Assembly (NCBI GenBank): GCA_963422205.2
Contig: CAXMWX010000005.1
Coordinates: 32,001-96,000, forward strand
Reading direction: 5' to 3'
From: Gammaproteobacteria bacterium
Lineage (GTDB): Bacteria > Pseudomonadota > Gammaproteobacteria > Eutrophobiales > Eutrophobiaceae
DNA length: 64,000 bases
The position numbers were made by a program, and so were the translations under genes. The notes under the pieces were generated by a model. It searched no databases. It had not been told where the DNA came from and saw only the letters and a program-made list of their open reading frames with translations. Positions 2,555 to 24,106 of this stretch are shown piece after piece. The first letter of the stretch is position 1, and every line of letters begins with the position of its first letter.

Positions 2555-2576
2555 GGCCGCAGCACCCTGCCCGGTG

Positions 2577-3384: not shown

Positions 3385-3732
3385 CTAGCCAGAGGCACTC
3401 AGAATCTCATCCAGCTCGGATTTCGCCGCTATCATGGTCTGGTTGATTTTTTCAATCTGCTCCGGGAGGCGGTCTAGCTCCCACCGGGCCTTGCTGTTTT
3501 TTTCAATCCGCAGCAGGTCTTGTTCAAGACAGGTCAATCCTGCATAAAAAATAATTGGCCTCAGCTTGTGAACCAGCCTGGATAACGCATCCCAATCCTT
3601 ATCTGCCACAGCCTCGCTCAACTCTGTGGTTGCCCTGTCAATGCGGCTGCTGCCCATACTGACCAACTCCACCAGCATCTCATCATCACCGCAGCTGTTT
3701 GCTTTGAGTTTCTCTCTATCAATTAATGCCAT
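3385..3732 (-). CDS. Stand-alone Hpt (histidine phosphotransfer) protein
   Basis: 115 aa helical protein, IDREKL..CGDDEML.ELV and LVHKLRP phospho-His motif. Confidence 0.75.
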   Translation of the reverse strand: MALIDREKLKANSCGDDEMLVELVSMGSSRIDRATTELSEAVADKDWDALSRLVHKLRPIIFYAGLTCLEQDLLRIEKNSKARWELDRLPEQIEKINQTMIAAKSELDEILSASG

Positions 3733-3740
3733 GGTATCCT

Positions 3741-4130
3741 CTACTGCAATACAGCATGCAGTTTTTTCAACAACGCATCTCGGGTAAACGGTTTCAACAA
3801 CACATCGTCAATACCTGCGGAAATTAATTCTGCCCGTTCCAGCGCATCGGCGGTCAAGGCGATGACCGGCATGTCGCGCTTCGGGCGGGTAAAATCCTGT
3901 CTCAGTCGGCTTACCAACTCATAACCATCCATGATCGGCATGTTCAGATCGGTGAGCAGCAGATGCACATCGTTTGCCTGTAGCACATCAAGCGCCTGCT
4001 GACCATTATTCGCGGTAAAGAGGGTAAATTCGGCGATCTTTTGCAGACATTTCCGGGCAATAAAAATGTGCATGTCCTCATCATCAACAATCAATAACGA
4101 TTTGTGAGCAAACTGAACCTGCTGTTGCAT
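3741..4130 (-). CDS. Single-domain response regulator (REC)
   Basis: LIVDD...LLTDLNMPIMDG...IALTA...LLKPF. Confidence 0.9.
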   Translation of the reverse strand: MQQQVQFAHKSLLIVDDEDMHIFIARKCLQKIAEFTLFTANNGQQALDVLQANDVHLLLTDLNMPIMDGYELVSRLRQDFTRPKRDMPVIALTADALERAELISAGIDDVLLKPFTRDALLKKLHAVLQ

Positions 4131-4339
4131 AACTATCTGCCTGTACCGATCATAGCGACATGACGACCATGCCCTTTGTCTGTAAAGCTCTATGAACGCA
4201 ATTATACATCAAGCGCCCGTCAGGTTAAGCACGGCTTGCCGGTTACAGGCAACATGACAATGCCACAGAGCGACTTGCCCCGTGCGGTGTTCTCCTGAAC
4301 GTTGGGCGGGTTTATCGTAGCAGGGATGATACCGCTTGG

Positions 4340-5632
4340 CTAATTTTGTGACACGGCAGCAAGGGCGGCGATAAATTCCGGGATGTTCTGATAACGATCG
4401 GTGGGAGATTTCTCCAGCAGCTTCTCAACCAGCGGCTGAAATGTTGCCAGCTCGGTCGGTAAAGGCGGCGGCTTGTCATAGGCATGTTGACAGGCCACCT
4501 CAATAATTGAATCGCCGGAAAACGGCTTGCGACCCGTGAGCAACTCATAGAACAAAATGCCAAGGCTGTAGATATCGGTACGCCGATCAATCTGTGCCCC
4601 CTTTATCTGCTCCGGACTCATGTAAAACGGCGTACCCAGCACCTCGCCCCTGGCGGTCATCACTTCCTGGCAGGTCAAATCCTTGGCGATCCCCAGATCG
4701 GCAATCACCAGATCATCATCTTCTTTGAACAGAATATTATTCGGCTTGACATCCCGGTGTACCACATTCAACTCATGCAGAGCAGACAAGCCCCTGGCGA
4801 GGCTTAGGGTATAATTGACCGCAGATTCTGGCAGCAGATGATCGCGCTTGATTTTGCCGGCGAGATCGCCGTTGGACAAATATTCCATGGAGTAATAAGC
4901 GTACTCTTCAGTAAAACCATAATCCATGGTCTTGATGATATTCGGATGGTGCAGGTTTGACAGTATGGTAAATTCGCGCATAAAACGCTTCACCAGCACA
5001 GGCTGGGTGACATCCCGGACATCCAGCACCTTCAACACCACCTGCTGCTGATCTTTTTCCCGCTCGGCAAGCAAGGTGGTAGACCAACTGCCAGAGGCAA
5101 TCTCGCGGATGCAGAAATACCCGGGAATATGCCAGCGGTTGACATATTTTTTTACGCCATAGCCGGTGATGTCGATCAACTCGGTCTCATTCTCACCCAG
5201 CTGGAGCTCCTCTTCATCCTTCCGCTGTTGCTGCAAACTCTCCAGCATCGCCCGGTGAGTGAGTATATCGGTGACCCGCTCATACAATAGCTCACTCGCC
5301 AGATCATACTTGATGAGATAGCTGTCAGCACCGAGCTTGATCGCCTTCACGGCGACTTTCTCATCCCCCTCGCCGGTGACGATCACCACCGAGGCACTGG
5401 ACTGCCTGGCCTTTATCATCTTGAGCCAATCCAGGCCATTCTCGGTCTGAAAACCAAGATCATAATCCAGAAATATCATATCGTAATCTGACCAGGAAAA
5501 ATCATCGTCCGGCTTGCCACGTCTGTGCGGATCATAGGTTTCTATGTCAGCATGAGGCCATCTGTGTGCTATGGCTTTTTTGAAATAATTGCGGAAACTT
5601 CTCGAATCGTCTATGACCAGGAATTTTGGCAT
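4340..5632 (-). CDS. Receiver domain-Ser/Thr protein kinase fusion
   Basis: N-terminal REC (VIDDS, IFLDYDLG, VTG, LIK); Hanks kinase motifs VVLKVL, HRDVKPNN, DLG, GTPFYMSPEQ, DIYSLG; no TM. Confidence 0.92.
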   Translation of the reverse strand: MPKFLVIDDSRSFRNYFKKAIAHRWPHADIETYDPHRRGKPDDDFSWSDYDMIFLDYDLGFQTENGLDWLKMIKARQSSASVVIVTGEGDEKVAVKAIKLGADSYLIKYDLASELLYERVTDILTHRAMLESLQQQRKDEEELQLGENETELIDITGYGVKKYVNRWHIPGYFCIREIASGSWSTTLLAEREKDQQQVVLKVLDVRDVTQPVLVKRFMREFTILSNLHHPNIIKTMDYGFTEEYAYYSMEYLSNGDLAGKIKRDHLLPESAVNYTLSLARGLSALHELNVVHRDVKPNNILFKEDDDLVIADLGIAKDLTCQEVMTARGEVLGTPFYMSPEQIKGAQIDRRTDIYSLGILFYELLTGRKPFSGDSIIEVACQHAYDKPPPLPTELATFQPLVEKLLEKSPTDRYQNIPEFIAALAAVSQN

Positions 5633-5660
5633 GGTGCAGCTATCGCGCTATCTGATGAGT

Positions 5661-6140
5661 CTATTCTGTCAGCAATGAATTAAAAATTTTTTGTAAATCA
5701 ACAATCGGGGTTGGTCCGTGCTCGGGGTGCTGAAAACAGGATGCAGCAATCAGTGGCCAATCATCCCATCCAGCCGGGTAATCACAACATGAACCATCGG
5801 TGACAGTCGCCCGATAGGGCAATGCACTTAACACGAGCGCACCATAGCCCACCTTATCGGCATACGCTGCACTGTGATAAGCAACGATGCAGATAAAATA
5901 ACGCGGCAGGGATTGCACCTGGCGGGCAGACTCAGCTGAACAGATCACATTATAGATATCAAAAACCGGCACAACTCGGCCATGCCATAGCAAAATACGG
6001 TGACAGTAGGCCGGCGTGTGAGGTACTCGATGCAGCTTGATCCATTCGGTGATTATGTGCAGCATGTCGAACTCACCGATAGCAACATGCACTGATTCAG
6101 CTATCGGCAACACCCAAGCATTGGTCACTGTCTTACCCAT
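5661..6140 (-). CDS. CheW-like protein
   Basis: RVPHTPAYCHRILLWHGRVVPVFD resembles the CheW core; last gene block of the chemosensory operon. Confidence 0.7.
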   Translation of the reverse strand: MGKTVTNAWVLPIAESVHVAIGEFDMLHIITEWIKLHRVPHTPAYCHRILLWHGRVVPVFDIYNVICSAESARQVQSLPRYFICIVAYHSAAYADKVGYGALVLSALPYRATVTDGSCCDYPAGWDDWPLIAASCFQHPEHGPTPIVDLQKIFNSLLTE

Positions 6141-6146
6141 ACATCA

Positions 6147-6632
6147 TCACCTGTGCGCTTCGGCCAAATTGCTGGACATGTAATCTCCCTTGCCACTGTG
6201 TGCAATCAGCCGATATAAGGCCCGAACACTGATCAGGCTGTAGATACGCTCCTTGTGTATGCCGATATGGCTGACTGGACAGGTGCCTGCCTGCATACAC
6301 ACCGGCAGTTCAACCAGTTCAACCTGATCTTTATCCAGGCGGTTTATGGCATCACAGGCCAGGGCAAAGACCACCTCATCAACACAGATACACAGACACA
6401 TTTTCCTTGAGACTGGCATGGCACGGATCAGTTGCAAATCAGCATCAAAATTAAACACGCTGAATGCGCGGCCAGCATGTACGACCGCCCCGACGGACAG
6501 GCTATTGGCATCATCTGCCATCATGTCCGTGATGGATTCTATGGCACTCACCTGTGCTTGCGGGATGAGCAATTTTGTTTTTTCTATCTCAAGCTGCAAG
6601 AGTTCGCTGGTATCGGCAACCGGAGCAGGCAT
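6147..6632 (-). CDS. Divergent CheW-like (ChpC-like) protein
   Basis: LLIPQAQVSAIE...VGAVVHAGRAFSVF; directly downstream of the CheA-like hybrid kinase. Confidence 0.6.
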   Translation of the reverse strand: MPAPVADTSELLQLEIEKTKLLIPQAQVSAIESITDMMADDANSLSVGAVVHAGRAFSVFNFDADLQLIRAMPVSRKMCLCICVDEVVFALACDAINRLDKDQVELVELPVCMQAGTCPVSHIGIHKERIYSLISVRALYRLIAHSGKGDYMSSNLAEAHR

Positions 6633-6641
6633 TATCGTTGA

Positions 6642-9566
6642 CTACGGCGAACAGATGGATTGAATTTTCTCCATCAGCTCATCTTCAGAATAAGGCTTGA
6701 TCAGATACGCATCAACACCCGCCGTCATGGCCTCCTGCTGATGCCGGGCGGCGGCCCTGGAAGTAATCATGATGCAGGGGATATCCGAGATACTGCCATC
6801 AGCACGTATATGTCCTATCAGCTCCAGCCCGGTCATCCTCGGCATTTCCAAATCAGACAGCACGATATCCGGCTTGCTGACTTTTATTATCTTGAACGCT
6901 TCCACCCCATCACGCGCCATACGCACAGTGTAACCGGCATCTTGCATAAACTGCGCCAGCGAACGTCTGGCACTGAGCGAGTCATCCACGATAAGCGCCG
7001 AGGGTAAATTCGAACGGGGTGCTTCGGTTCTTTGATATCTGCTTGCCGCCTTCCCCGCCGTGGTCGTAACCCGCACCAGTTCAGGTAAATCAACCACCGG
7101 GGTAACACTGCCATCCCCTAAAATCGTCACTCCTGACACACCGGTCAACCTCGGCACGTAATGGCCCAGATCCTTAACAACCAGGTCCTGACCGCCGATT
7201 ATCTTCTCCACCATGACGGCATGCCTGCCCTGCTCATTCTCTACCAGCAAAACCGAGCGCGATTCCCGGTCTTCGCTGCGGCGCTCAAAAACCATATTAA
7301 TCATATTTTCAAATTGATGTGCCGGGTAGCTATGCTCACCCAGCTGAAACACCTGCTTGCCGCCATAATCCAGCAGCCGCCCGGATTGATGATGGATGAT
7401 CTGCACGATACCGCGATTGGCAATGGCCACAAGCTGCGGCCCGGCCCTGATCAGCAACACATAGGAAGAGACCAGCGTCTGCGGCAGCTTGATCTCCACA
7501 GTACACCCCTTGCCGGTGTCTGATTCAACGATAAAACTCCCCGACATCTGCACGATGGCGGCATAAACCGCATCCATTCCGATACCCCGGCCGGATATCT
7601 GGGTTATTTTTGCACTGGTGGAAAAATCCGAACGTAAAATCAGTTGCTTCAATTCATCGTCTGAGATCTCATCCTGCGGCTGGTAGATCCCCTGTTCCAT
7701 CGCCTTGCGTTTGATTGCTGCATAATCCAGGCCCTTGCCGTCATCCTGACAACGCACCAGGATCTGATTGCCCTCGCGCATAAACGTCAGATAAATATCA
7801 CCTGTGGCCGGTTTGCCGGCGGCCAGGCGCACAGCACGCTCCTCAATGCCATGATCTATCGCATTGCGTAACAAGTGCATCAATGGATCAAGCAGATTAT
7901 TCAATGTGTTGGTATCTATCAGCGTATCGCCGCCATGCAGATGCAGCCTCACCGCTTTGCCTGTGATCCTGCTGGCCTGCCGGACACTGCGCTGCAAGCG
8001 GGCAAACTGTGAACTCACCGGCACCATCCTGGCGCGCATCACCCCTTCCTGGGTTTCATTATTCAAACGCGCCTGCTCCAGCAACATCTCATCCAGACGC
8101 AACAGATTCTCCGATACGGTTTTCGCCTCTTCATTCGCATCAACCGCGGCTTCAACCAGCCGTCGGCAACACGTATGTAATTCGCTGTACAGATCCATCT
8201 CCAGGCTGTCATAATCACTGTCCAGCGTACCCGCCCGTTGCAGGCCGGTTAAATCCTTGACATCAACAATCTCTTCCAACTGACTGCCTAACTGCCGGAT
8301 CAGCGCAAACTGCCCCTGCATGTTTTTAATCTGTGTTCGGGTGACGTGCACCCGGTCACGCACCTGCCCGGTCATGATGATGGTCTCGCCCACCAGTCTT
8401 AATAAATTATCAACAAACCCGGCCGGAACCCGCATCATGAAACTGCCGGATTCACGCATGTTAATCCCTGGCTTGCCGGTCTCAACAGCACCAGGCTCGC
8501 CCGATTGTCTTCCCTCGGCATCTGACAGTGCTGGCTCTTCTGCCCGGGCCGGCATGAGATCGGCCACCTGTATGCCCTCCTGTTCAATCAGGTTGACCAA
8601 ATCCAGCACCTCCTGCAAAGTCTCACGGGCATCTTGCGGCGGCCTGCCTGTCCCCAGCAGGGTTTCACTCATCGCTGCCAGACAATCAGCGGCATTCATC
8701 AAGGTCTCGGAGATGCGTACTGATGGCAGCCGCTTGTGCTTGCTTAATATAAGCAGCAGGTCTTCCAAGTGGTGGGTCAGGGTGGCGATACCACGCACTC
8801 CCACCGTATTGGCGGCACCCTTTAATGTGTGGGCAACACGCTTTGCGATCTGCACATCCTCAAGAGTACCGCCATCAGTCAGACGACTGATCGCCGCCGA
8901 AAACTCCTCGGTCTGCCCCGGCAACTCTGCTAACAAACCATCGAGTAAATCCTGACTGACATCATCTTGCAGTTGCAGGGAAACATCGGCAGCACGTGCA
9001 CTCCTCTGCCGCTCTGCCATGATCTTTTCAGGCACCGTAAAACCGGATTTAAGGAGCGTGTTTTTCAGCACCCTGGCCTGCTCTGCGGATAATGGCATCG
9101 GCCAGGCACTGTCCTGCATAAAGGACAACAAGCGATTCGTTGCCGCTTCATTCGCTGGATTGCTCAGGCAGGCCAGCAGGGTTTGTGGCCATCTGCCAAG
9201 CAGGGCGAGGGTATTTCCCAGTGCTTCTGGCTGATCCTCTGCCATTGCAAGATCGGCAAGGGTTGAGAGATTGGCCCGGGCAGTATCAACCACCTCGGCC
9301 AGGGCGGTAAAACCAAGGCTGCTCAAGGCATCGGAGTAACGCTGCATTTGTGTGGTTAGACCCGGCACCAGCAACAAGGCGGCATCAATCTCGGCAATGG
9401 CTAATTGCTGTATTGCCTCATGGATGACCCGCAATTCGGCTGCCATGATCTGCACGGCCTCCCGGATCGAGTCCGGCAATTCATCGCTGATCGCCACCTC
9501 AAGTGCAGGCGATGGGGGGGTGCCTTTATCCAGCAGATCATCGGCTTGCTCATCAGAAATCATCAC
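6642..9566 (-). CDS. CheA/ChpA-like hybrid chemosensory histidine kinase (Hpt, dimerisation, HATPase, CheW, REC)
   Basis: AHTLKGAA (Hpt), RMVPV, HLLRNAIDHGIE, DDGKGLD, SGRGIGMDAV, GVTILGDGSV, C-terminal REC IVDDS...DLEMP...KPY. Confidence 0.95.
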   Translation of the reverse strand: MMISDEQADDLLDKGTPPSPALEVAISDELPDSIREAVQIMAAELRVIHEAIQQLAIAEIDAALLLVPGLTTQMQRYSDALSSLGFTALAEVVDTARANLSTLADLAMAEDQPEALGNTLALLGRWPQTLLACLSNPANEAATNRLLSFMQDSAWPMPLSAEQARVLKNTLLKSGFTVPEKIMAERQRSARAADVSLQLQDDVSQDLLDGLLAELPGQTEEFSAAISRLTDGGTLEDVQIAKRVAHTLKGAANTVGVRGIATLTHHLEDLLLILSKHKRLPSVRISETLMNAADCLAAMSETLLGTGRPPQDARETLQEVLDLVNLIEQEGIQVADLMPARAEEPALSDAEGRQSGEPGAVETGKPGINMRESGSFMMRVPAGFVDNLLRLVGETIIMTGQVRDRVHVTRTQIKNMQGQFALIRQLGSQLEEIVDVKDLTGLQRAGTLDSDYDSLEMDLYSELHTCCRRLVEAAVDANEEAKTVSENLLRLDEMLLEQARLNNETQEGVMRARMVPVSSQFARLQRSVRQASRITGKAVRLHLHGGDTLIDTNTLNNLLDPLMHLLRNAIDHGIEERAVRLAAGKPATGDIYLTFMREGNQILVRCQDDGKGLDYAAIKRKAMEQGIYQPQDEISDDELKQLILRSDFSTSAKITQISGRGIGMDAVYAAIVQMSGSFIVESDTGKGCTVEIKLPQTLVSSYVLLIRAGPQLVAIANRGIVQIIHHQSGRLLDYGGKQVFQLGEHSYPAHQFENMINMVFERRSEDRESRSVLLVENEQGRHAVMVEKIIGGQDLVVKDLGHYVPRLTGVSGVTILGDGSVTPVVDLPELVRVTTTAGKAASRYQRTEAPRSNLPSALIVDDSLSARRSLAQFMQDAGYTVRMARDGVEAFKIIKVSKPDIVLSDLEMPRMTGLELIGHIRADGSISDIPCIMITSRAAARHQQEAMTAGVDAYLIKPYSEDELMEKIQSICSP

Positions 9567-9621
9567 GGCGGCACACGTCAGCCGTTGCAGTTATACGGCC
9601 TGGCGGGCAGCATGAGCCGTA

Positions 9622-11043
9622 TCACTTGACCTGTTCCGGCAGCTTGAACACCCGCACGGCCTCCACCAGCAAGGCGGAATAATTGACCAGCTTGTCTGCG
9701 TTGGCTGATTGCTCATGCAACTCGGTATTGGTCTTCTCCGTACTCTCCTTGATGACTTTTGCTCTTTCAGTAATCGCGGTCGTGGTTTTCGCCTGCTGCA
9801 TTGAACTGCCCGCTATTTGCTGCACCATCTCAACCAGGTTATTGGTCTGCTGCATGGTCTCCTGCATTTGTTCACCCGCCTTACCGGCCAGTTGCGTGCC
9901 AGCAACCACTTCGCTGATCGCACTGTTCATGGTGGTGACGGCATCGGAGGTTTCGGTCTGTATATTGTTCACCAGTGAGGCGATCTGTGCGGTTGCTTCA
10001 CGTGAGTTCTCCGCAAGACGCTGAACCTCATCCGCAACAACGGCAAAGCCACGCCCGGCCTCACCAGCAGAAGCCGCATGCATACTCGCATTCAAGGCGA
10101 GAATATGGGTACGTTCAGCAATGCTGTTAATCAGGCTGACCACGCTGCTGATCTCCTGTGAACGCTCACCCAGTCTTTTGATACGTTTTTCTGTCTCTCG
10201 AATGGTCTCGCGGATAGTATTAATCCCCTCTACTGTACCAAGCACCGTCTCTTTGGCCTTTGAGGTGGTGTTGGTTGCATCATCCGCTGCCTTGTTACAG
10301 GTCTGCGCCAGTTCGGCGATCTGCCGCATGGCTTCTGCTGCTGATAATAACTCGGCATTGGCGAGATCGACTTCAATACTTTCCTTATTGGCCAGTTCAA
10401 GTGCCTTGTCGGAGTGATTTTTTACTGACTGGCAGCTATGTGAAATGTCATCGGACATGGTGCGTACACCCTGCAATACCTGGGCGATCTCATCTGCCAG
10501 GATGTTTAATGAGTCGGCAATCGGTGCGGTGGCATCTTCATTCACATCCACTCGTGCGGTGAGGTCTTTCTGGCTTAGCTTGTAGACGCCGTGTAATAAC
10601 TTGACCACGGCATTATTCAGGGCTTCATTTTCCTGTTTTGAGCGTTGTTCAATATTGACTATCTCATCCAGGATGGCATCCAGCGTTGTGCCGACGGCCC
10701 CTATCGGATCGCCATCGCCCAGGCCAGTGCGGGTATCCTGCTGTCCATCCAGCACGTTTTTCAAGGTCGACATGAGGCAATCAAGCGATGTGCCAAGGCG
10801 GCGTCTCGTTTTTATACTGGCGATCAGCAAATAGATGATGATAAGGAAAGCTGCCAGCAGCATGGCCATATCCACAACCTGCAATTCACCTTGCAGCAGA
10901 TGGATATTGGCGATAAAACGCCAACTGACCATGACAGAGATGATCGCACAGAGCAGCAGACCTGTGGTTAGAAAATTCAATCTCCTGAGAATGGGAAATT
11001 CCCCCTCATGGTGAGTGTCTGCTTGTGATGGTAAAAACGTCAT
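9622..11043 (-). CDS. Methyl-accepting chemotaxis protein (PilJ-like signalling domain, very short periplasmic loop)
   Basis: Two TM helices, HAMP-like segments, hairpin tip IAERTHILALNASMHAASAGEAGRGFAVVADEVQRLAE. Confidence 0.93.
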   Translation of the reverse strand: MTFLPSQADTHHEGEFPILRRLNFLTTGLLLCAIISVMVSWRFIANIHLLQGELQVVDMAMLLAAFLIIIYLLIASIKTRRRLGTSLDCLMSTLKNVLDGQQDTRTGLGDGDPIGAVGTTLDAILDEIVNIEQRSKQENEALNNAVVKLLHGVYKLSQKDLTARVDVNEDATAPIADSLNILADEIAQVLQGVRTMSDDISHSCQSVKNHSDKALELANKESIEVDLANAELLSAAEAMRQIAELAQTCNKAADDATNTTSKAKETVLGTVEGINTIRETIRETEKRIKRLGERSQEISSVVSLINSIAERTHILALNASMHAASAGEAGRGFAVVADEVQRLAENSREATAQIASLVNNIQTETSDAVTTMNSAISEVVAGTQLAGKAGEQMQETMQQTNNLVEMVQQIAGSSMQQAKTTTAITERAKVIKESTEKTNTELHEQSANADKLVNYSALLVEAVRVFKLPEQVK

Positions 11044-11058
11044 GGGCTTAACCCCCCG

Positions 11059-11595
11059 TTAGTCAGTGAAACTGCTGAATACTTCCTGAAACAGCCCGTC
11101 AAAATCCACATCCAGCCATATATCCTCTGCATGTAGAAAAGCGGTTTTTGTGTGGTTCTGCAAAATATCAGCCAATGGTGGCAGGGCATCGACTGGCCTG
11201 CTGGCATCCACGACAACCGGCAGATCATCAATGCTGATACCGACACTTTTGCTGCCCTCACCAATCATCAACACCCAGCGGCCAGGCTGATCAGCACCGG
11301 TATCGAGCAGCATATCCATGTTGATCACCGGTATGAGATTGCCGCGCACATTAATCATGCCCCGAAACCATAACGGCGTATTGGGTATCGGACAGGGGCC
11401 AGGGGCATCAATGACTTCAGATTTTTCACCGCCTGCCAGCAACAAGCCCATCGTCCCGACCATAAATCCATAGCGTGATGTTTCAACCTCTTCAGCCCGG
11501 TAGACATCCAGTTTATCCGGGCGGGCGGTGAAACGGGTCAACGCCTCGCTCGGTAACAGCAGACCATCGGGCAGGTTATCGTTACGCTGTGACAT
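11059..11595 (-). CDS. CheW/PilI-like coupling protein
   Basis: PIPNTPLWFRGMINVRGNLIPVI. Confidence 0.88.
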   Translation of the reverse strand: MSQRNDNLPDGLLLPSEALTRFTARPDKLDVYRAEEVETSRYGFMVGTMGLLLAGGEKSEVIDAPGPCPIPNTPLWFRGMINVRGNLIPVINMDMLLDTGADQPGRWVLMIGEGSKSVGISIDDLPVVVDASRPVDALPPLADILQNHTKTAFLHAEDIWLDVDFDGLFQEVFSSFTD

Positions 11596-11678: not shown

Positions 11679-12485
11679 TTATTCAATATCAAGATACTCA
11701 CTGATGACCTCTTTGAAGATCCCCGGATTAACCGGCTTGATCATATAGGTATCACACCCTGCCAGTTTGCCTTTCACCTTATCGGCTGGCGATGAATTAC
11801 TGGTCAGCATAATCACCGGGGTCTCGGCCTTGTTTGGATCCTGCTTGATCATCTTGCAGATGTCATAGCCATCAACCCCCGGCAGCACCACGTCCAGAAA
11901 CACAATATCATAACGATTACCTTTTATAAGGGCTTCTGCCTCCTCACCGCTTTCCGCAAAATCTATTTTGCTGGCGATGCTCTGTAGTGCTTTTTTCATC
12001 TGAATGCGAACTGGCAGACTGTCATCAACGACCAGCGCGCTGATGGCATTGCCAGCCGCCTGGGTGCCATCGCCCTGCCCGTCTGTTGCACTGCCTGACT
12101 CACCCTCAAAGATCGAGGGCACAGCATAGCCATGCTCATCGATCACCGTCTCTTCCAGCAAGGACAGCAGGCGGGTGGCGACCAGGGGCTTGGCGGTATA
12201 ATGGTTGGTGTCATTCGGATTGGCCGGCGGGATCGACTCACATAGCATGATGGTGGAGATGACATTGCCCTCGCCATAGCGTTTAAGGTAAGCACCCCAG
12301 CGGCGCACGGCATCCGGGTTGTCTGCATCAACAATCAGGATGTCGGCATATTTCCTGCCCGACAGGGCTTCAAACAGATCAAAGGATGGCGTACGATTTT
12401 TAGCCAGTGCCATCGCCGTGGACAAGATGTTTTGATCATGTGTTTTAAACCCAATGGATGCAACGGCAAATATCGTCTCACTCAT
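11679..12485 (-). CDS. Response regulator with degenerate N-terminal REC-like domain and C-terminal PilG/PilH-like REC
   Basis: C-terminal LVVDDS...FLDVVLPGVDGYDIC...MLTS...KP; N-terminal ILIVDAD...KP remnant. Confidence 0.8.
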   Translation of the reverse strand: MSETIFAVASIGFKTHDQNILSTAMALAKNRTPSFDLFEALSGRKYADILIVDADNPDAVRRWGAYLKRYGEGNVISTIMLCESIPPANPNDTNHYTAKPLVATRLLSLLEETVIDEHGYAVPSIFEGESGSATDGQGDGTQAAGNAISALVVDDSLPVRIQMKKALQSIASKIDFAESGEEAEALIKGNRYDIVFLDVVLPGVDGYDICKMIKQDPNKAETPVIMLTSNSSPADKVKGKLAGCDTYMIKPVNPGIFKEVISEYLDIE

Positions 12486-12697: not shown

Positions 12698-14302
12698 TTA
12701 AGCCCATTCCTTCCAGTTCAATCCCATGAGTAAATCTTCGGTGCTTTGAAAACGCTCATCCGGGTCTTTACACAGTAAACCATCGAGCAGTGGTTGCAGG
12801 GATAAGAATTGTTCGGGGAGCTTGGGGATAGGTGCAGAGAGGTGGCGTTCAAACACGCTCATGGGCGTGCCGCCGGTATACGGATGCTTGTTGGTCAGCA
12901 TTTTATACATGATGATGCCAAGGCTGTAGATGTCGCTGCGCTGATCAGCTTTGCCACCTTCTATCTGTTCAGGGCTGATGTAGTATAAGGTGCCCATAAG
13001 CTGCCCATCCATGGTCAGCCCCTGCTTGATTTGATTTTCTGCCTCCAGGTCTTTTGCGATCCCAAAATCTGTCACCGCTAACTCATCTGCAGAACGAAAC
13101 AGGATATTCGCCGGCTTCATATCCCGATGCACGATGCCGAGGGCATGGGCGGCTCCCAGACCTTCAGCAATCTGATGTAAGTAGGAAATTGCCGTTTTCC
13201 CATCTATGCCGGCCTTTAATCGCTCGGCCAAATCGCCATGACTGAAATATTCCATGGCGATATATGCAAAATCGCTGGCAAATGCACGCTCGTGAATCTG
13301 CACGACATTGGGATGATCAATCTGCCCGATTATCTTGTATTCCCGCATGAAACGCCTTAACAGCCCGGAACCCCCCTGCTCTCCCAGCGACAGCACCTTC
13401 AACACCACTTTTAACTGATCTTCCTCTCGTTCTGCCAGATAGATAGAGGCCATGCCCCCTTCGCCAATTTTTTTCTCCAGACGATAGCCCGGCACCTCGA
13501 TGGGAATATCCTTCGCTGTGCATGGCCGGCGAGTCACAGAACCCGCCCCTGCCTTGCTGATGGGGCGTCTTTTCGATATCAGTCTGCTCGGCGTCGAACT
13601 TGCCAGCACCTTATCTGTTGCCTCTGCTCTCTGCTGTACCTTCCCTGCTTTGCGCTGGGTTTTCCTTACCCTCTGCCGTGCTTTTGCTGCTTTGTGTTGT
13701 GTTTTCTTTGCCTTCTGCTGTCCGCTGCTGTCCTGCTTGCTTTGCTGTCTCCTGCTGGTAATCTCTGACATCTCCTCGCTGCTCAACAAGACCGTGCGCT
13801 CATGCTCATCGGCTTTCGCTGTGCCTGCAAGCTGCATGGCGAGGTGTTTCTCCTGTGGGCTTAACACCCGTGTCCTCTCCGCCTCATCCTTGTCAGCCTC
13901 ATCGTCCGCTGCGCCTGCCCGGCTGCTCGCCAGCACTTTTTTTACCCGCTCGGAAAATAACTCTGGCGTGATGTGATCTTTACTCAGAAAATCATCGGCA
14001 CCCAGTTTATGCACCTTGGCCTCCAACTGCTTACTGTCATAGCCGGTAAAGAATATTATGGGTGGCGTATTGGGCTGTTGCTTCAGCTGCCTCAACCAGT
14101 GCAGGCCGTTTTGACCTTCCAGGCCAAGATCATAATCAAGCAAAATCAAACCGTATCTGGACCAGTTAAAATCATGCTCCGGCAGCCCGCATTCAGGATC
14201 ATAACTTTCAACGATGACATCGGGGAACTTCAAGTGCTTGCAAAAATGAATAAGACGCTCGGCATCTGTTGCATCATCTATGATTAATATCCTGTCTAAC
14301 AT
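12698..14302 (-). CDS. Receiver domain-Ser/Thr protein kinase fusion with long basic linker
   Basis: REC (IIDD, ILLDYDLG, FTG, LSK); kinase GEGGMASIY, VVLKVL, HRDMKPAN, DFG, GTLYYISPEQ, DIYSLG. Confidence 0.93.
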   Translation of the reverse strand: MLDRILIIDDATDAERLIHFCKHLKFPDVIVESYDPECGLPEHDFNWSRYGLILLDYDLGLEGQNGLHWLRQLKQQPNTPPIIFFTGYDSKQLEAKVHKLGADDFLSKDHITPELFSERVKKVLASSRAGAADDEADKDEAERTRVLSPQEKHLAMQLAGTAKADEHERTVLLSSEEMSEITSRRQQSKQDSSGQQKAKKTQHKAAKARQRVRKTQRKAGKVQQRAEATDKVLASSTPSRLISKRRPISKAGAGSVTRRPCTAKDIPIEVPGYRLEKKIGEGGMASIYLAEREEDQLKVVLKVLSLGEQGGSGLLRRFMREYKIIGQIDHPNVVQIHERAFASDFAYIAMEYFSHGDLAERLKAGIDGKTAISYLHQIAEGLGAAHALGIVHRDMKPANILFRSADELAVTDFGIAKDLEAENQIKQGLTMDGQLMGTLYYISPEQIEGGKADQRSDIYSLGIIMYKMLTNKHPYTGGTPMSVFERHLSAPIPKLPEQFLSLQPLLDGLLCKDPDERFQSTEDLLMGLNWKEWA

Positions 14303-14397: not shown

Positions 14398-14958
14398 TTA
14401 AAATAATTCCACATCGCCTTTATCCAGGGATTGTTGTTTTACCGGATTACTTAATTGCATGGCATGGCTGACTGCCGCTATATCGGCCCGACATTTTTTT
14501 AACACCGACATTATCTCGGCACTGTCCTGCCCTGTCGATTGATACAAGACCTCCACCTGCTCATGAATAGCGACAAACATTTTTTCTATTTCACCGACAC
14601 GTAAACAGGCATGGTTAATCAGTTGCTGCAAGATATCCTCAAACTGCAAGGCGCGCACGGCATTGCCGACAGATGAGCTGATCTCATTGGTGGTCAATAA
14701 CAGGTGTTCTATGTCACTCTCATCCTCATGCTGTTGCACCTGCACGGCGCACTTTCGCAACTCGGCGCTTTGTTGTGCCAACTGGTAACTCATGGTACCG
14801 AAACATGCACGCAGATCACCTGCCGCCTCCCGCAACATCTTGCTCATGCGTTCAAGATCACTCCCCATGACCTGCTGTTCACGAATGACAATATGGCAGA
14901 CATCATCAGACAGGGCATGCAGTGACTGCATTAATTGGTTATGTCCGTTTTCACTCAT
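14398..14958 (-). CDS. Chemotaxis-associated coiled-coil protein (MCP/CheZ-like C-terminal module)
   Basis: AVRALQFEDILQQL motif and C-terminal NPVKQQSLDKGDVELF, typical of small proteins in che clusters. Confidence 0.65.
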   Translation of the reverse strand: MSENGHNQLMQSLHALSDDVCHIVIREQQVMGSDLERMSKMLREAAGDLRACFGTMSYQLAQQSAELRKCAVQVQQHEDESDIEHLLLTTNEISSSVGNAVRALQFEDILQQLINHACLRVGEIEKMFVAIHEQVEVLYQSTGQDSAEIMSVLKKCRADIAAVSHAMQLSNPVKQQSLDKGDVELF

Positions 14959-16299: not shown

Positions 16300-16307
16300 G
16301 GCTGAGG

Positions 16308-17827: not shown

Positions 17828-17866
17828 GACCTTAGCCAGGGGCCAGGAACGATAATGTTGTCAGGC

Positions 17867-18331: not shown

Positions 18332-18367
18332 GTCGTGCTTATCTCAGCCTGTTGCGGCGGGCAGGAT

Positions 18368-18877: not shown

Positions 18878-18889
18878 TGCCCCTCCTGA

Positions 18890-20905
18890 CTATGTGCTGA
18901 TCTCGGCCGCTGCGCTGGGGGTATTGGCCGATTCGTTTTCTGCTAACCAAAATTCAAGCAGGCCAGGCAAATCGATGATCATCGCCACGGTACCATCCCC
19001 CAGGATAGTCGCCCCGGCCAGGCTTTCAATCTGACGAAAATTCGTACGCAGGCTTTTAATCACAACCTGCTGCTGGCCTAATATGTCATCCACCAGCAGG
19101 CCGATGCGCCGCCCGGCATCCATGATGACCAGCAAGCCGTCGTCCAGTGCGGTATTGGCACCTTGAACACCGAAGACCTCATGCAGGCGAATGACCGGGA
19201 TATACCCATCCCGGTAGCGATATACCTCATATTTGCCCGCCACAGCGCTCACCAGGCTACTGTCAATCTGGGTGGATTCGATGATCGATAACAGCGAGAT
19301 GACAAAAATATCCTCACCCACCCGGATCAGCTGACCATCCATGATGGCCAGCGTCAGCGGCAAATATAGGCTGAACGTGGTGCCGATGCCTTTTTGCGAT
19401 GCCACTTTGACATTACCGCCCAGCTCCACGATGTTGCTTCTGACCACATCGGCGCCCACACCCCGCCCGGATACGCCACTGATCTCGTTCGCCGTGGAGA
19501 AGCCGGGCAGGAAGATCAGGTTGTGAATCTGGCTTTCCGTCAACTCATCGCTGACGTTAATCAGGTCTTTCTCAATCGCCTTTCTCCGGATCGCCTCCGG
19601 GTCAATACCGGCCCCATCATCACGGATCTGTACCACGATATTGCCGCCCTCATGATAGGACTCCAGCGCAATCACGCCGACCTTCTCCTTCCCCGCCGCT
19701 TCACGTTCAGCCGGGGTTTCAATGCCATGATCCAGCGCATTGCGAATCAAATGCACCAGCGGGTCGCCGATCTTCTCCAGTACGGTCTTGTCAATTTCGG
19801 TGGCGTTGCCCGACAGTTTGAGCTCGACCTGTTTGCCCAGCGAGCGGCTCAAATCATGCACCAGCCTCGGCAGGCGCTGAAAGACAAAGTCAATCGGCAA
19901 CATCCTGATGTTTAAGGTTTGCTCCTGCAAATCACGGGTATTACGCTCCAGCTGTTCCACGCTTTGCTTGAGTTTTTCCCGATCAACAGGGCGGCGATTC
20001 GTACTGGCAAACCGGCTCAGCATGGAGACCGTGATCACCAACTCACCCACCAGATTGACCAGATTATCGACTTTCTCCGTGTTCACCCGGATAGAGTTGC
20101 TTTCCTGGCCGGGGAGCTGTCCGCCCGAAGCCGCACTGGTCGGGAGCTGCATATCATCCGCCCGGCGGCCACCGGTACGACCCCCGGCACGACGATCAGC
20201 ATGCTGCCTGCGCTCGCCGCCCAGCTCGATATGCAGCTCACAATCCTCATCCACCCATTCAAACATCTCTTCGATATCGCCCCTCGCAACATCGGCAGAG
20301 AACTGGATATGCCAGCTAAGGTAACACAACTCCGGGTCCATGCCTTGCAGCGGCGGCAGCCGGTCAAGCTGTCCGCTGATCTGCATCTCGCCCAACTCGG
20401 CCAACTCACGAAACAAACGATAGGGATCGTTGCCCGTTTTTAGAAAATAATCATGGGGATGGAAATAAATATGCCAGCTGGGGGTTGGCTGTTGTGTGGC
20501 CTCGCTTTGGGTGGCTGCTGGCAGTGCAATCAGCTTCTGCCTGATCCCGGCCACCTTGTCTTTGTCAATGTCCTGGCCGGATTTCGACTGGGCAATCATG
20601 TAGCGAAGGCAATCCACAGACTCCAGCACGGCATCCACCATCAGCCGGGTCAGCGCCCGCTTTTGCTCCCGCACCTCATCAAAACAGGTCTCAACCACGT
20701 GGGTAAAATCGGCGATGTCGCTGAAACCAAAGGTGCCGGCACCGCCTTTGATCGAATGTGCCGCACGAAACACCGTATTGATCACCTCCGGTTCGGGACG
20801 GGCAATGTCGAGACTCAGCAGATTGGCCTCCATCACTTCCAGGTTTTCTATGCTCTCCTCAAAGAAAATGTCATGGAACTGCGACATATTCAGGTCTAGC
20901 GCCAT
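18890..20905 (-). CDS. cheA: Chemotaxis histidine kinase CheA
   Basis: FRAAHSIKGGAGTFG, SIRV..EKVD.LVNLVGELVI, HLIRNALDHGIE, SGRGVG, LPLTLAI, GATILGDG. Confidence 0.96.
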   Translation of the reverse strand: MALDLNMSQFHDIFFEESIENLEVMEANLLSLDIARPEPEVINTVFRAAHSIKGGAGTFGFSDIADFTHVVETCFDEVREQKRALTRLMVDAVLESVDCLRYMIAQSKSGQDIDKDKVAGIRQKLIALPAATQSEATQQPTPSWHIYFHPHDYFLKTGNDPYRLFRELAELGEMQISGQLDRLPPLQGMDPELCYLSWHIQFSADVARGDIEEMFEWVDEDCELHIELGGERRQHADRRAGGRTGGRRADDMQLPTSAASGGQLPGQESNSIRVNTEKVDNLVNLVGELVITVSMLSRFASTNRRPVDREKLKQSVEQLERNTRDLQEQTLNIRMLPIDFVFQRLPRLVHDLSRSLGKQVELKLSGNATEIDKTVLEKIGDPLVHLIRNALDHGIETPAEREAAGKEKVGVIALESYHEGGNIVVQIRDDGAGIDPEAIRRKAIEKDLINVSDELTESQIHNLIFLPGFSTANEISGVSGRGVGADVVRSNIVELGGNVKVASQKGIGTTFSLYLPLTLAIMDGQLIRVGEDIFVISLLSIIESTQIDSSLVSAVAGKYEVYRYRDGYIPVIRLHEVFGVQGANTALDDGLLVIMDAGRRIGLLVDDILGQQQVVIKSLRTNFRQIESLAGATILGDGTVAMIIDLPGLLEFWLAENESANTPSAAAEIST

Positions 20906-20967
20906 GGCCTTAAATCCCCCGATTCCGCCGCATGCGTTATACCATCAACCGTGGCTGCCTGCTGACA

Positions 20968-21345
20968 TCACAAAACCCGTCGTATGGTCTTGAGCAAGGT
21001 ATCCGGATCGAAGGGTTTGACAATCCAGCCAGTCGCACCGGCCGCCTTACCCTGCTGCTTCTTGTCATCGGCAGATTCTGTGGTCAGAGTCAAGATAGGC
21101 GTGAACCGGTAGTTCGACAGCTGTCTGAGCTCTTTGATAAGCGTGATCCCGTCCATATTCGGCATGTTGATGTCTGTCACCACCAGGGCAACATCATTGT
21201 CCTGGGCAAATGCCAGGGCATCCACCCCATCCATACTTTCATGCACCTCATAATGGGCGGCTTTCAAGGTGAAACTGACCATCTCTCTCATGGAAGCCGA
21301 ATCATCGACCAGCAGGATCCGTGTCGGTTTGGGTGTCTCTGTCAT
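20968..21345 (-). CDS. cheY: CheY-like response regulator
   Basis: ILLVDDS...TDINMPNMDG...LTTES...GWIVKPF; first gene of the che operon. Confidence 0.9.
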   Translation of the reverse strand: MTETPKPTRILLVDDSASMREMVSFTLKAAHYEVHESMDGVDALAFAQDNDVALVVTDINMPNMDGITLIKELRQLSNYRFTPILTLTTESADDKKQQGKAAGATGWIVKPFDPDTLLKTIRRVL

Positions 21346-21708
21346 TATTAATTTTTTATCTGAAAGGTTTCTTAACTTTAATCAATAACCTGGCTTTCGT
21401 CCACAGTAAAACGGCGGCATAAAATCACTGCCTGAAGTTGGTAAATGACTCAAAATATTGCCTTTAAGCCATGAAATACTAAAGTATTATCGACAAGCAT
21501 GTTGCCGCAGTATTACAATAACATCATAAGGTATGGTCGCAGATAACCCTGTGGGTAGTGATGAGCTGTCTGGCACAGCCCGTTATTGACAGTACAATAA
21601 ACGCAATAAATGCTATATTTTACAGATATTTATACGAATCCCAAAGAATGCAGTGCGCCCGCATCAGCGGCTTTGCGTTTCTTAACGGTAAATTAGAGAA
21701 GTCAATCA

Positions 21709-22086
21709 ATGCCAAAGACCGTGTTAGTGGTGGATGATTCGAAATCAGTCCGTGCTGTGATAGGCGCCACATTAAAAATGGCCGGCTATAATCTGATATT
21801 AGCCGAAGATGGCCTGCAAGCGATGGATTTGCTGTCCTCACCAGAGACCCCCCCGATCGATCTGATCATTACCGATGTCAACATGCCCAACATGGATGGC
21901 CTGACCTTAATCAAGGAGGTGAAAAAACTGGCCGGGTACTTCAAAACCCCGATTTGTGTGCTCACCACCGAAACCGAGCAAAGCAAACTGCAACAGGATA
22001 TTGGTCATCTGAACGATGCCTGGATCACCAAGCCGGTGCAACCTGCCCATGTGTTAAACGTGGTCGGCGAGTTGTTGTCGAGCTGA
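21709..22086 (+). CDS. Second CheY-like response regulator, divergently transcribed
   Basis: VLVVDDS...TDVNMPNMDG...LTTE...WITKP. Confidence 0.88.
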   Translation: MPKTVLVVDDSKSVRAVIGATLKMAGYNLILAEDGLQAMDLLSSPETPPIDLIITDVNMPNMDGLTLIKEVKKLAGYFKTPICVLTTETEQSKLQQDIGHLNDAWITKPVQPAHVLNVVGELLSS

Positions 22087-22135
22087 ACTGCTACGACAAG
22101 CCTGGCTGTAACATCCACCGAGCCGACATAGAAAA

Positions 22136-24106
22136 ATGGCAGCAGCAGAACAGCAAGCATCTGAGGTGAATTGCCAATCCATACTGGCTATAGATGATGA
22201 TCCTGACTTCATCACCCTGCTGAAAATTATCTTTCAGAAGCTCACCCCGGGCGCCAGATTCTACAGCTATGATCCAGAGAAAAAAGGACGGCCGGACAGC
22301 AATTTCAACTGGTCGAAATATGATCTGATCCTGCTCGATTATGACCTGGGCGATGGCGAGAAAGGGTTGGACTGGCTGCGGCGTTACAAAACCTCGGAAG
22401 AATTCCCCACCACCGTCATGCTGACCGCCCAGGGGGATGAGGAAATTGCCGTCCAGGCGATGCGTTTTGGGCTGGAAGATTACATCAACAAACAGAAGCT
22501 CTCGTTTGACCGGCTCTCCCAGGCGGTCAAAAACGCCATGGCGAGAAAACAAAAGCAAAAAAAGCTCGCCAATACGTTAAGCATGCAGGCCAGCCTGTTT
22601 GACAAGGCCAGCTTTTATAAAAAGCTGCGTGATGAGCTGAAGACCCTTGATGAGGATCAGGACAAGCATGCGTTTATTTTGCAGATCAGCATTGATGATT
22701 ATGACGGGCTGTATGAAAAACACGGCATCCTCGCCATAGACAACCTGTGTTCCAATATGGCCGGCAAGATTGCCAAGGCCCTCACCAGCAGCAAATTTGT
22801 CGTCAATATCACCCGTCTGGATGATTCTCTCATTGGCTGCCTCATCACCGAACATGCGGATGAGAATGGGGGGGAGAGAATTGGTCGGGCGATTTGCAAG
22901 CTGATAGATAACTACGCCTACACCATAAAAGATGCGAAGCTGACTTCAACGGTCAGCATCGGCATCATGAATATCAGCCGCTCGACAGCGAAACCGGATA
23001 CCCTGCTCAATCAGGTGAACAAAGCCTGTCAGAAGGCGGGCAAGAAGGCGGGAAACAGCATCGTGCTGATCAGGCAGGCCGGGAAGAAGGCCGAGACAGC
23101 ACAAGCCGCCGTCAAAACAGATCACGCTGCTGCCAGAACAAATATTGTGATACTGGATTTGGATGAGGGCGTATCCGCACAGGCGCTGGATACCGCACAG
23201 AAAAGTACGCCCCAGGAACAGCCGGCCGGGCAGGCAGCCGATAAACCGGCAAGCAAACGCAGGCCAGCGGCTAAAAAAACTGCCCGTAAAGAGACAACGA
23301 CAGCAAAGCCGCCGGCACCGGATGAGGCGGATGAGGCGATGGCAGCAGAAGCGCCAAAATATGATCTCCATGCCGCCGTTGGGCAGAATCGCATACAAAC
23401 CTACTACCAGCCATTTGTCGCCCTGTCAGAAAGTGCCAATATGTTTGATGCGGAATTTTTTCAATTAACGATCAATATTGTCGATCCTGACGGTGCACTC
23501 ATCAGCCAGCAAGCCATGATGGAGAGAGAGATTGAACCCGGTGGATTAGTCCTGCTTGATCGCTGGATGATCAGGCACGGTCTCGGCCAGTTAATGCTGA
23601 ATAAAAAAGAAAATGAGCAGGAATGCGGCCTGTTTATGCGGCTCTCGGCGGACTCCTTTACCAACAATGATTTGTTTGACTGGATGGTGAAGCTGATTGT
23701 CAGAACCAAAACCTCCAGCATCACGTCCAAGATGGTGTTTGAAATCAGCCCGCCTGAATTTCTGTCCAATAAAAAAATCATGCAGGACTTTATCAACAAG
23801 ATGCGCGATACCTGGGGCATTGCGTTTTCATTATATGATGTCGTCAATCCGGCGGTGCTGGAGACCTGCGTTAAGCAAGCGGGTTTTGAATTTGCAAAAG
23901 TCAACTTAAACAAGGCATCGGTGGATGATATCAGGCCGGTGGTGGAATCGGCCCGCAGACTCGGCACCTTGACCGTGATTGAAAACATCCAGGATGCCGA
24001 ACAATTAAACCAGTCGGTGGTCATCGGTTGCGACTATGCCCATGGCGATTTTATCCAGCCACGACAAGATGCCCTCATCTCCTCTAACGATGCCATAGAG
24101 CTTTAA
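22136..24106 (+). CDS. REC-GGDEF-EAL protein with both enzymatic motifs degenerate
   Basis: REC (AIDDD, LLDYDLG); GGDEF position reads RLDDSLIG, followed by STVSIG; EAL region YYQP...FQLT...LDRW...FEIS...GCDYAHGDFI lacks EAL and DDFGTG. Confidence 0.82.
   Translation: MAAAEQQASEVNCQSILAIDDDPDFITLLKIIFQKLTPGARFYSYDPEKKGRPDSNFNWSKYDLILLDYDLGDGEKGLDWLRRYKTSEEFPTTVMLTAQGDEEIAVQAMRFGLEDYINKQKLSFDRLSQAVKNAMARKQKQKKLANTLSMQASLFDKASFYKKLRDELKTLDEDQDKHAFILQISIDDYDGLYEKHGILAIDNLCSNMAGKIAKALTSSKFVVNITRLDDSLIGCLITEHADENGGERIGRAICKLIDNYAYTIKDAKLTSTVSIGIMNISRSTAKPDTLLNQVNKACQKAGKKAGNSIVLIRQAGKKAETAQAAVKTDHAAARTNIVILDLDEGVSAQALDTAQKSTPQEQPAGQAADKPASKRRPAAKKTARKETTTAKPPAPDEADEAMAAEAPKYDLHAAVGQNRIQTYYQPFVALSESANMFDAEFFQLTINIVDPDGALISQQAMMEREIEPGGLVLLDRWMIRHGLGQLMLNKKENEQECGLFMRLSADSFTNNDLFDWMVKLIVRTKTSSITSKMVFEISPPEFLSNKKIMQDFINKMRDTWGIAFSLYDVVNPAVLETCVKQAGFEFAKVNLNKASVDDIRPVVESARRLGTLTVIENIQDAEQLNQSVVIGCDYAHGDFIQPRQDALISSNDAIEL

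Follow-up and report, generated by a model that had tools for sequence, protein, structure and literature searches.

Chemosensory systems that serve functions other than motility have, to our knowledge, cyclases, transcription factors or further histidine kinases as their outputs, and the links between two-component and Ser/Thr signalling that we know of are mainly cross-phosphorylation or receiver-phosphatase fusions. In the Wsp system of Pseudomonas aeruginosa the hybrid CheA WspE feeds WspR, a receiver-GGDEF protein, and in Pil-Chp of the same species, as in Tax1 (PixGHIJL), the genes follow the order regulator(s), CheW, methyl-accepting chemotaxis protein (MCP) and hybrid CheA. Here we analyse a stretch of 64,000 nucleotides (nt) from a gammaproteobacterium of the family Eutrophobiaceae (assembly GCA_963422205.2, contig CAXMWX010000005.1, positions 32,001 to 96,000), called the window, in which two chemosensory operons are interleaved with three genes whose products share an unusual type of receiver domain, named REC* in this report; two of these proteins are REC*-Hanks kinases (types A and B) and the third joins REC* to a degenerate GGDEF-EAL module. 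We consider it rather probable that REC* is a portable receiver turning His-Asp input into Ser/Thr phosphorylation, and that it has been recruited in the window as the output of two non-flagellar chemosensory systems. The chemosensory link of the type A kinase rests on an operon structure found in four families. Domain content, conserved residues, the distribution of the subfamily and conserved gene order are what was observed; the phosphate donor of REC*, the mechanism of its activation and its targets are what we infer.

Several described systems offer points of comparison, and the statements cited below are limited to the accessible parts of the papers named. Pil-Chp of P. aeruginosa and Tax1 of Synechocystis are systems of the type IV pilus (Tfp) class (PMC10782961, PMC11181946). 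FimX is a degenerate GGDEF-EAL receptor of cyclic di-GMP (c-di-GMP) that acts on type IV pili by way of PilZ and PilB (PMC13507683), HsbR (PA3346) of P. aeruginosa is a receiver-PP2C regulator acting on a STAS partner (PMC12189002), and the function of the ancestral F7 chemosensory systems was called unclear in a 2020 study (PMC7184735).

Two chemosensory operons and three REC* genes

A Pfam scan of the open reading frames (ORFs) places both chemosensory operons on the minus strand and upholds the preliminary description of this DNA, which had reported two such operons interleaved with the REC* genes. The features are as follows (lengths in amino acids, aa):

22136..24106, plus strand: REC*-degenerate GGDEF-degenerate EAL protein, FimX-like (P0003), 656 aa; REC* 12-146, GGDEF 154-307, EAL 411-642
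21709..22086, plus strand: ordinary single-domain receiver (Pfam), divergent from cheY and just upstream of the REC*-GGDEF-EAL gene
21345 to 15178, minus strand: operon 1, the second chemosensory operon, containing CheR, CheD and CheB; CheY, CheA (Hpt, dimerisation, HATPase_c, CheW), CheW, STAS protein, CheR, CheD, CheB (Pfam)
14398..14958, minus strand: 186-aa ORF between CheB and the type B kinase, no Pfam family
12698..14302, minus strand: type B REC*-Hanks kinase (P0002), 534 aa; REC* 1-125, K/Q/A-rich linker of about 140 aa, kinase 273-521
11679..12485, minus strand: X-REC, first gene of operon 2 (the hybrid-CheA operon), 268 aa; 140 aa without Pfam family, then a receiver at 151-258
11059..11595, minus strand: CheW of the hybrid-CheA operon (Pfam)
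9622..11043, minus strand: MCP with an N-terminal membrane hairpin, 473 aa (Pfam)
6642..9566, minus strand: hybrid CheA, 974 aa; Hpt, HATPase_c, CheW and C-terminal receiver (Pfam)
5661..6632, minus strand: two small ORFs between hybrid CheA and type A kinase, 161 aa without family and 159 aa with a weak CheW match
4340..5632, minus strand: type A REC*-Hanks kinase (P0001), last enzyme gene of the hybrid-CheA operon, 430 aa; REC* 1-125 (nt 5258-5632), kinase 175-415
3741-4130, minus strand: stand-alone receiver, 129 aa, after a gap of 209 nt from the type A kinase
3385-3732, minus strand: Hpt-like protein, 115 aa, with the motif HKLRP

The genes of operon 1 are separated by -1 to 62 nt; a gap of 219 nt lies between its end and the 186-aa ORF, the type B kinase follows 95 nt further, and operon 2 begins 212 nt beyond that kinase. 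From the hybrid CheA across the two small ORFs to the type A kinase the gaps are 9, 6 and 28 nt. When 3000-22500 was scanned for promoters and terminators, 27 and 25 sites were obtained, where shuffled sequences gave 19.2 and 16.2; these counts lie too near the background for operon boundaries to be drawn from them.

All five CheW-domain hits of the window's own genome (G000; other genomes compared are labelled G###, fetched gene neighbourhoods L### and families f#) fall inside the window, so that its two systems are the only chemosensory systems of the genome, while three of the four MCPs are encoded elsewhere. Since no flagellin hit was obtained in this genome, which is 98% complete and has PilB/PilT-type ATPases, both systems are taken to be non-flagellar. 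The genome also encodes eight Pkinase proteins, three of them with REC*, and gives three PP2C and four FHA hits, none of which lies within the window.

The layout of operon 2 is that of Pil-Chp or Pix systems. It shares with them the succession of regulator(s), CheW, MCP and a hybrid CheA that has a C-terminal receiver and no P2 domain, in a host without flagellin and with PilB/PilT-type ATPases; unlike them, it shows one Hpt domain by Pfam (residues 206-289, with 1-205 and 290-500 outside any family), its first regulator has an uncharacterised N-terminus of 140 aa, and an extra REC*-kinase ends the operon. The F3, F5, alternative cellular function (ACF) and Tfp classes typically have a CheA built in this way, from Hpt, HATPase_c, CheW and Response_reg (PMC10782961). 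With Wsp it has in common that a non-motility operon encodes, after a hybrid CheA with a receiver, a signalling enzyme joined to a receiver, which is the pathway output in Wsp and the proposed one here; operon 2 differs from Wsp in that the output here would be a Hanks Ser/Thr kinase, that CheR and CheB are absent from operon 2, and that REC* also works outside che clusters.

Ancestral F7 operons have the order cheY-cheA-cheW-(aer2/mcp)-cheR-cheD-cheB. Apart from the receptor gene, operon 1 shows this order, as does the ancestral (stage 1-2) system Che2 of P. aeruginosa, and it belongs to an organism in which it cannot drive a flagellum; it departs from the F7 order in that the operon of G000 has no Aer2-like or other receptor gene, where G024 and G256 have a 705-aa MCP, and in the presence of the STAS gene. 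Operon 1 is thus ancestral-F7-like and operon 2 Pil-Chp/Pix (Tfp/ACF)-like only as resemblances in layout. The STAS gene (17867-18331, minus strand) stands between cheW and cheR in G000 and G024; in G007 a ParA/MinD-like ATPase gene occupies its place (L058:16006-16761).

Among the smaller genes, the 186-aa ORF falls in ESM-atlas clusters auto-named 'putative chemotaxis protein' (score 0.97) and otherwise in unnamed clusters, and its homologues hold the same position in G007 and G256. X-REC keeps its position in G002, G007, G008, G024, G039, G233 and G256; for its N-terminus the ESM-atlas gives weak leads (below 0.9) to CheY-like folds. In layout, X-REC resembles DrdR of Xanthomonas, a tandem of pseudo-receiver and receiver that has Asp148, Asp198 and K253 and binds PilB and PilT (PMC13507683, as far as the accessible text goes). 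The CheW match of the 159-aa ORF (E 2e-4) is under the Pfam cut-off; both small ORFs are present in G024, and the 159-aa ORF also in G256.

The REC* receiver and its output domains

The three REC* of the window have in common the signature DPxxxGxPxxxFxWSxYDxIxLDYDLG..GLxWL. The receiver segments quoted in the preliminary description agree letter for letter with the translations, where they are followed by GLDWL (4340-5632), GLHWL (12698-14302) and GLDWL (22136-24106). When the nine receivers of the cluster are aligned, pairs of REC* have 34-36% identity, against 15-27% between a REC* and any of the remaining six. These six lack both the three-residue insertion that the trio carries before beta3 and its two extra residues after the phospho-Asp and, as the preliminary description had stated, are without the segment. 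Thirty columns are invariant in the trio, including D8, D9, D56, T86 and K108, the residues needed for phosphorylation, just as had been described, and these five are at least 90% conserved across 62 REC*-kinases. The scores on Response_reg (PF00072, cut-off 30.2) are 46.8-48.8 bits for the three REC*, where the six ordinary receivers reach 76-95 bits; the phospho-Asp of REC* lies within LDYxLG..GLDWL, and the catalytic Lys is not followed by Pro. By its sequence, REC* forms a receiver subfamily of its own; its phospho-acceptor residues are intact, and it is predicted to be phosphorylatable.

The AlphaFold2 model of P0001, built from 62 homologues, has a mean predicted local distance difference test (pLDDT) of 85.9, with 10-residue blocks of 83-95 over residues 1-110 of REC*. 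It departs from the canonical (beta-alpha)5 fold with five helices at alpha2, where a four-residue helix (35-38) and a loop are found; the remaining elements are present in the usual order, and alpha5 spans 114 to 140, leading into a disordered linker. In this model, helix alpha2 of REC* is replaced by the conserved turn and loop DPxxxGxPxxxFxW. A PDB search gave no solved structure within the subfamily, the best match being 6oap (E 3e-13), an ordinary receiver from a dual sensor kinase of a cyanobacterium. The assignment of REC* to the NarL/FixJ type, found in one source annotation and in weak NCBIfam matches (E 2e-9), was not adopted because neither the output nor a family cut-off backs it.

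Pfam confirms the outputs given earlier, with two REC* fused to Hanks kinases and one to GGDEF-EAL. Pkinase (PF00069) is matched in 4340-5632(-) and 12698-14302(-) at 170.6-171.3 bits, and K201, E220, H292-R293-D294, N299 and D312, the DFG Asp, are invariant in 62 REC*-kinase sequences; P0001 reads DLG where DFG is expected. In a Foldseek comparison its modelled kinase domain matches PknB 5u94 (E 5.6e-23, TMt 0.86). On residues and model, the REC*-kinases look active. The description of the proteins as soluble is in accordance with the absence, in all three, of any 19-residue window reaching a mean Kyte-Doolittle value of 1.6.

In the third protein (22136-24106(+)) Pfam finds Response_reg, GGDEF and EAL, and the description of this module as degenerate is borne out: the GGDEF motif reads LDDSL, the EAL reads FQL, and EALxR has Q for its E and N for its R. 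Across 44 members of its clade the catalytic motif regions of GGDEF and EAL are not conserved, FQP, LDRW and DY..G.FI being the conserved elements. Since the motifs read LDDSL and FQL, the Arg of EALxR is Asn and these regions are not conserved in the 44 members, catalysis by this module is excluded, and from its sequence we regard it as catalytically dead and FimX-like. Its best solved relatives are FimX structures (4j40, E 3.4e-15; 7lkq; 3hva). FimX has a PAS domain between receiver and GGDEF. P0003 resembles FimX in the degeneracy of both motifs, its LDDSL being aligned to the GDSIF of FimX, and departs from it in that its receiver keeps all phospho-acceptor residues, that no PAS family is found at E <= 0.001, and that EALxR has lost E and R. 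The 'c-di-GMP-effector control' proposed earlier for this protein is speculative, because E and R of EALxR are replaced and the region is not conserved in the clade.

The preliminary description had named Hanks kinase and degenerate GGDEF-EAL as the outputs, and they recur: 60 REC* ORFs fetched from G000 and 23 relatives comprise 33 REC*-Pkinase proteins, 21 REC*-GGDEF/EAL proteins and six truncated by contig ends, every complete one having one of these two architectures. A word-indexed search with the P0001 receiver gave 47 matches, 43 of them kinases (the query included) and four GGDEF-EAL proteins. Domain calls at 1e-5 and 1e-8 on the 149 best global representatives, in which some long proteins of the receiver-only group may hide a degenerate EAL, were:

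Pkinase: 39
GGDEF and/or EAL: 52
Histidine kinase: 7
Other: 1
Receiver only: 50, many of them short

The signature is common to different outputs and donors, which points to an undescribed function of the alpha2 region of REC*.

REC* in other genomes

A profile of the three REC* separates four copies from the rest of the 26 receiver matches in G000, and since it finds just one further copy among these, the signature is a trait of a subfamily and not a product of chance. Outside G000, 57 copies were found at E <= 1e-15 in 24 of 40 relatives, and REC* is present in 21 of the 24 genomes of the window's own family. In an even class sample of 300 other Gammaproteobacteria, in which up to 13 candidates per genome were scored, at least 16 genomes have it at E <= 1e-22, from 12 families including the window's own (G165 is counted here, and nothing further is drawn from it); among 1.84 billion cluster representatives 69 proteins match at E <= 1e-30 and 3,860 at E <= 1e-10. 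Exact motif wording is looser than in the window, because a strict regular expression for the residues before the phospho-Asp matched 67 of the 149 top representatives and an LDYDLG-type pattern 24, and profile scores were used instead. A pattern scan of one genome per species gave 48 loci, mostly ordinary receivers matching the short LDY pattern only; for two of them (L001 and L002), BLAST of the neighbours against labelled references gave no match and no che gene.

The gene order [X-REC][REC]-CheW-MCP-CheA~REC-REC*-kinase recurs in four families. The operon in which the REC*-kinase comes after the hybrid CheA was recognised by Pfam in G002, G008 and G024 (f1, which includes G000) and twice in G039 (f16), and by BLAST to labelled references in G233 (f210), G082 (f59) and G256 (f16). 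Orthologues of the hybrid CheA (941-1412 aa) directly precede the REC*-kinase in L060, L062, L063, L064, L107 and L116, and in L064 and L116 the two genes abut or overlap by 1-4 nt. Two contig fragments (G004 and G023) fit the same pattern, with a REC* ORF less than 1 kb from a CheW-domain frame. In G002 and G008 (L060:13820-16376, L062:15542-18112) the operon is preceded by a gene for a DUF6976 protein (E 1e-138 to 1e-142) and by one for a 510-517-aa protein without family, both absent from the window.

Among 340 genomes searched, the full supercluster was seen in four. G024 and G256 have every one of the three REC* types but a changed gene order, in which the REC*-GGDEF-EAL gene adjoins X-REC and a GGDEF protein; G007 has the window's order without the type A kinase, and its single receiver and REC*-GGDEF-EAL gene (L059) are arranged as in the window. 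The type B copies of G024 and G007 likewise come after CheB and an ORF of about 190 aa.

CheW-domain hits were mapped in 41 genomes (G000 and the 40 relatives), and 12 of the 57 REC* hits in the relatives lie within 10 kb of such a domain; CheW-near neighbourhoods cover a few percent of each genome by a rough estimate made without control. In a tree of 60 REC* domains (quick search, Shimodaira-Hasegawa-like approximate likelihood-ratio test, SH-aLRT), the che-linked copies group in small clades of their own (93-99), apart from a 21-member kinase clade without any che-linked member: the type B kinase forms one clade with the G024 and G007 copies (99), the type A kinase one with the G024 copy (96), and the EAL-type protein one with the G024 and G007 copies (93).

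The 21-member clade (support 99), with one copy from each of 21 genomes, includes the fourth copy of G000, which lies outside the window:

G000:C9:92609-93868 (L049:8610-9869): fourth REC*-kinase of G000, in an operon that also encodes an RND pump

First an RND adaptor and then an AcrB-type pump are encoded ahead of the REC*-kinase, and after it come a HAMP-HisKA_3 kinase and a NarL-type regulator; the REC*-kinase gene lies 29 nt upstream of the HisKA_3 kinase gene, and this neighbourhood recurs in G010 and G233. Of the 21 loci of the clade, 12 have the HisKA_3 kinase as a neighbour on the same strand and 10 have the pump as a neighbour upstream. Genes for an aldehyde:ferredoxin oxidoreductase and a YNCE beta-propeller protein also lie near the fourth copy.

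Two further observations concern REC* proteins of genomes without CheW. In G018 (L053:8352-9623) the sole REC*-kinase is split into ORFs of 306 and 108 aa, a possible frameshift or pseudogene, and adjoins the gene for an FHA-VWA protein; in G010 and G016 (L055:954-1607, L051:8478-9116) a long REC*-EAL protein adjoins a protein of about 215 aa with a cyclic-nucleotide-binding domain.

Phosphate donors and the role of the cluster

In the reading we favour, REC* would be a portable module plugged into the donor encoded with it, HisKA_3 in the widespread clade and the hybrid CheA in the type A clade, and would gate either an active-looking Hanks kinase or a FimX-like GGDEF-EAL scaffold. Three REC* paralogues would have been recruited into a supercluster that holds all CheA and CheW genes of a non-flagellated host. 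The type A kinase, encoded by the terminal gene of the Pil-Chp/Pix-like operon, is most likely phosphorylated by that hybrid CheA, with the Hpt domain of the latter as direct donor or with the CheA receiver and an Hpt protein as relay; phosphorylation of REC* would switch the kinase on or off, probably via the long alpha5-linker helix and dimerisation, and a chemoreceptor signal would in this way be turned into Ser/Thr phosphorylation of target proteins. The type B kinase and the REC*-GGDEF-EAL protein, whose genes flank the CheR/CheD/CheB operon, are probably further branches of the same network.

A relay through the CheA receiver and Hpt to REC* and an independent kinase input are both possible, because the 115-aa ORF is Hpt-like and the best matches of the receiver at 3741-4130 are found in hybrid kinases. 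The 115-aa ORF matches Pfam Hpt at E 0.0014 (19.3 bits, under the cut-off of 24.6) and the Hpt regions of the NCBIfam models BarA, LetS and TorS at E 1e-3 to 5e-3; in an alignment with the Hpt structure 3myf (E 0.41), its HKLRP corresponds to HKLHG. An ORF of G024, flanked by the genes for a PAS-HisKA-HATPase-REC hybrid kinase and a receiver, shares 41% identity with it and has kept HKLRP.

If the link is true, a conserved receiver-gated Hanks kinase at the end of a hybrid-CheA operon would connect two phosphorylation systems directly and in a form accessible to genetics, and the conserved REC* neighbours of operon 1 would be candidate outputs of an ancestral-F7-like system. The nearest described parallel is HsbR, in which, as proposed here, His-Asp phosphorylation of a receiver controls an enzyme of Ser/Thr phospho-signalling; the enzyme there is a phosphatase and here a Hanks kinase, and the accessible part of the account describes no che link for HsbR (PMC12189002). 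Our literature search, which left subscription journals mostly uncovered and so leaves absence unproven, found no account of a receiver-Hanks kinase fusion as chemosensory output. A further-reaching claim would be that a chemoreceptor array directly drives Hanks Ser/Thr phosphorylation, that the REC*-kinase serves a Tfp/ACF-like hybrid CheA as a bona fide output and shares this role with the FimX-like REC* protein in an ancestral-F7-like system, and that the alpha2-less REC* is a dedicated adaptor family between His-Asp and Ser/Thr signalling, fed from CheA or HisKA_3; we put it forward tentatively, as something that may be the case.

Several observations weigh against these proposals. Most REC* copies lie away from chemosensory genes: 45 of the 57 hits, some of them on short contigs, have no CheW domain within 10 kb, 14 being in six CheW-less genomes (G005, G009, G010, G013, G016 and G018; 85-100% complete) and the other 31 distant from a CheW domain or on different contigs. 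Hybrid-CheA operons without a REC*-kinase exist too: in G007 the hybrid CheA is followed by an alcohol dehydrogenase, and in G012, G021 and G022 more than 60 kb separate the CheW-domain hits from the closest REC*. The che links of type B and of the EAL type come from four related genomes, and in G024 the genes after the type A kinase encode a complete PAS hybrid kinase, an Hpt-like protein and a receiver, a possible real donor. The glycine-rich loop of type A is atypical (ASGSWS, against the family consensus GxGGMS), the activation mechanism is derived from a single predicted model, and phosphotransfer is a step that we infer, gene order being unable to give its direction. CheA-CheW pairs elsewhere in G002 and G015 had no REC* within 10 kb.

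The preliminary description had spoken of a private receiver family dedicated to CheA. This part has to be given up in view of the CheW-less genomes, of the 12 of 57 hits near a CheW domain and of the fourth copy with its RND pump and HisKA_3 kinase; of the co-occurrence with che clusters that it had proposed to test by a profile search, the che-operon subset in four families stood, and most REC* hits proved unlinked.

Another explanation, which we regard as unlikely, is that the REC* of the cluster are fed by kinases other than CheA, such as an orphan or hybrid histidine kinase acting via the Hpt-like protein, and that they act on the che machinery and not downstream of it, the Ser/Thr kinases phosphorylating array components or shared targets and co-location reflecting co-regulation. 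The HisKA_3 kinases beside 12 of the 21 non-che loci speak for it, as do the ordinary histidine kinases that adjoin REC*-kinases in further families (L113, L118 and L120) and the hybrid kinase, Hpt-like ORF and receiver after the type A kinase in G024; at that place G000 retains the Hpt-like ORF together with a receiver of the type found in hybrid kinases. A STAS protein is a classic Ser-phosphorylated switch, and one is encoded in operon 1; a ParA-like gene replaces it, however, in G007. In G002, G008, G039, G082 and G233, moreover, the kinase comes directly after the hybrid CheA with no other kinase in the operon, and the two CheAs are the sole histidine kinase genes of the G000 cluster.

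That a lineage-specific expansion of REC* merely landed beside che genes and was kept by descent, without functional coupling, seems to us quite improbable. The rarity of the full supercluster, in four of 340 genomes, and the fact that relatives are not independent samples are consistent with such a history, but the linkage has been kept although gene order was rearranged between G000/G007 and G024/G256, the adjacency of the hybrid CheA and the REC*-kinase, with overlaps of 1-4 nt, extends across four families, and the che-linked copies stand in clades apart from the 21-member one (SH-aLRT 96-99). The receiver of FimX signals by binding only, and a pseudo-receiver of this kind would suit the unusual alpha2 region, the missing Pro after Lys, the low Response_reg scores (46-49 against 76-95 bits) and the FimX-like output of the third protein, but it is hardly to be expected of a domain whose acidic pair, Asp, Thr and Lys are all present in the three window copies and at least 90% conserved in 62 sequences.

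Some other genes of the window deserve mention. An N6/N4 DNA methylase domain is split across two neighbouring ORFs (1127-1885 and 1958-2635, minus strand), the downstream one being fused to an Mrr-type restriction endonuclease domain. A further Pkinase-domain protein without REC* lies in a 750-aa frame at about 44528-45187 on the minus strand (G000:C7:76528-77187). At 26561-27751, on the minus strand, there is a full-length homologue of PrnB, of the monodechloroaminopyrrolnitrin synthase family (E 1e-167), adjoined by genes for a polyketide-cyclase-like protein and a methyltransferase-like ORF.

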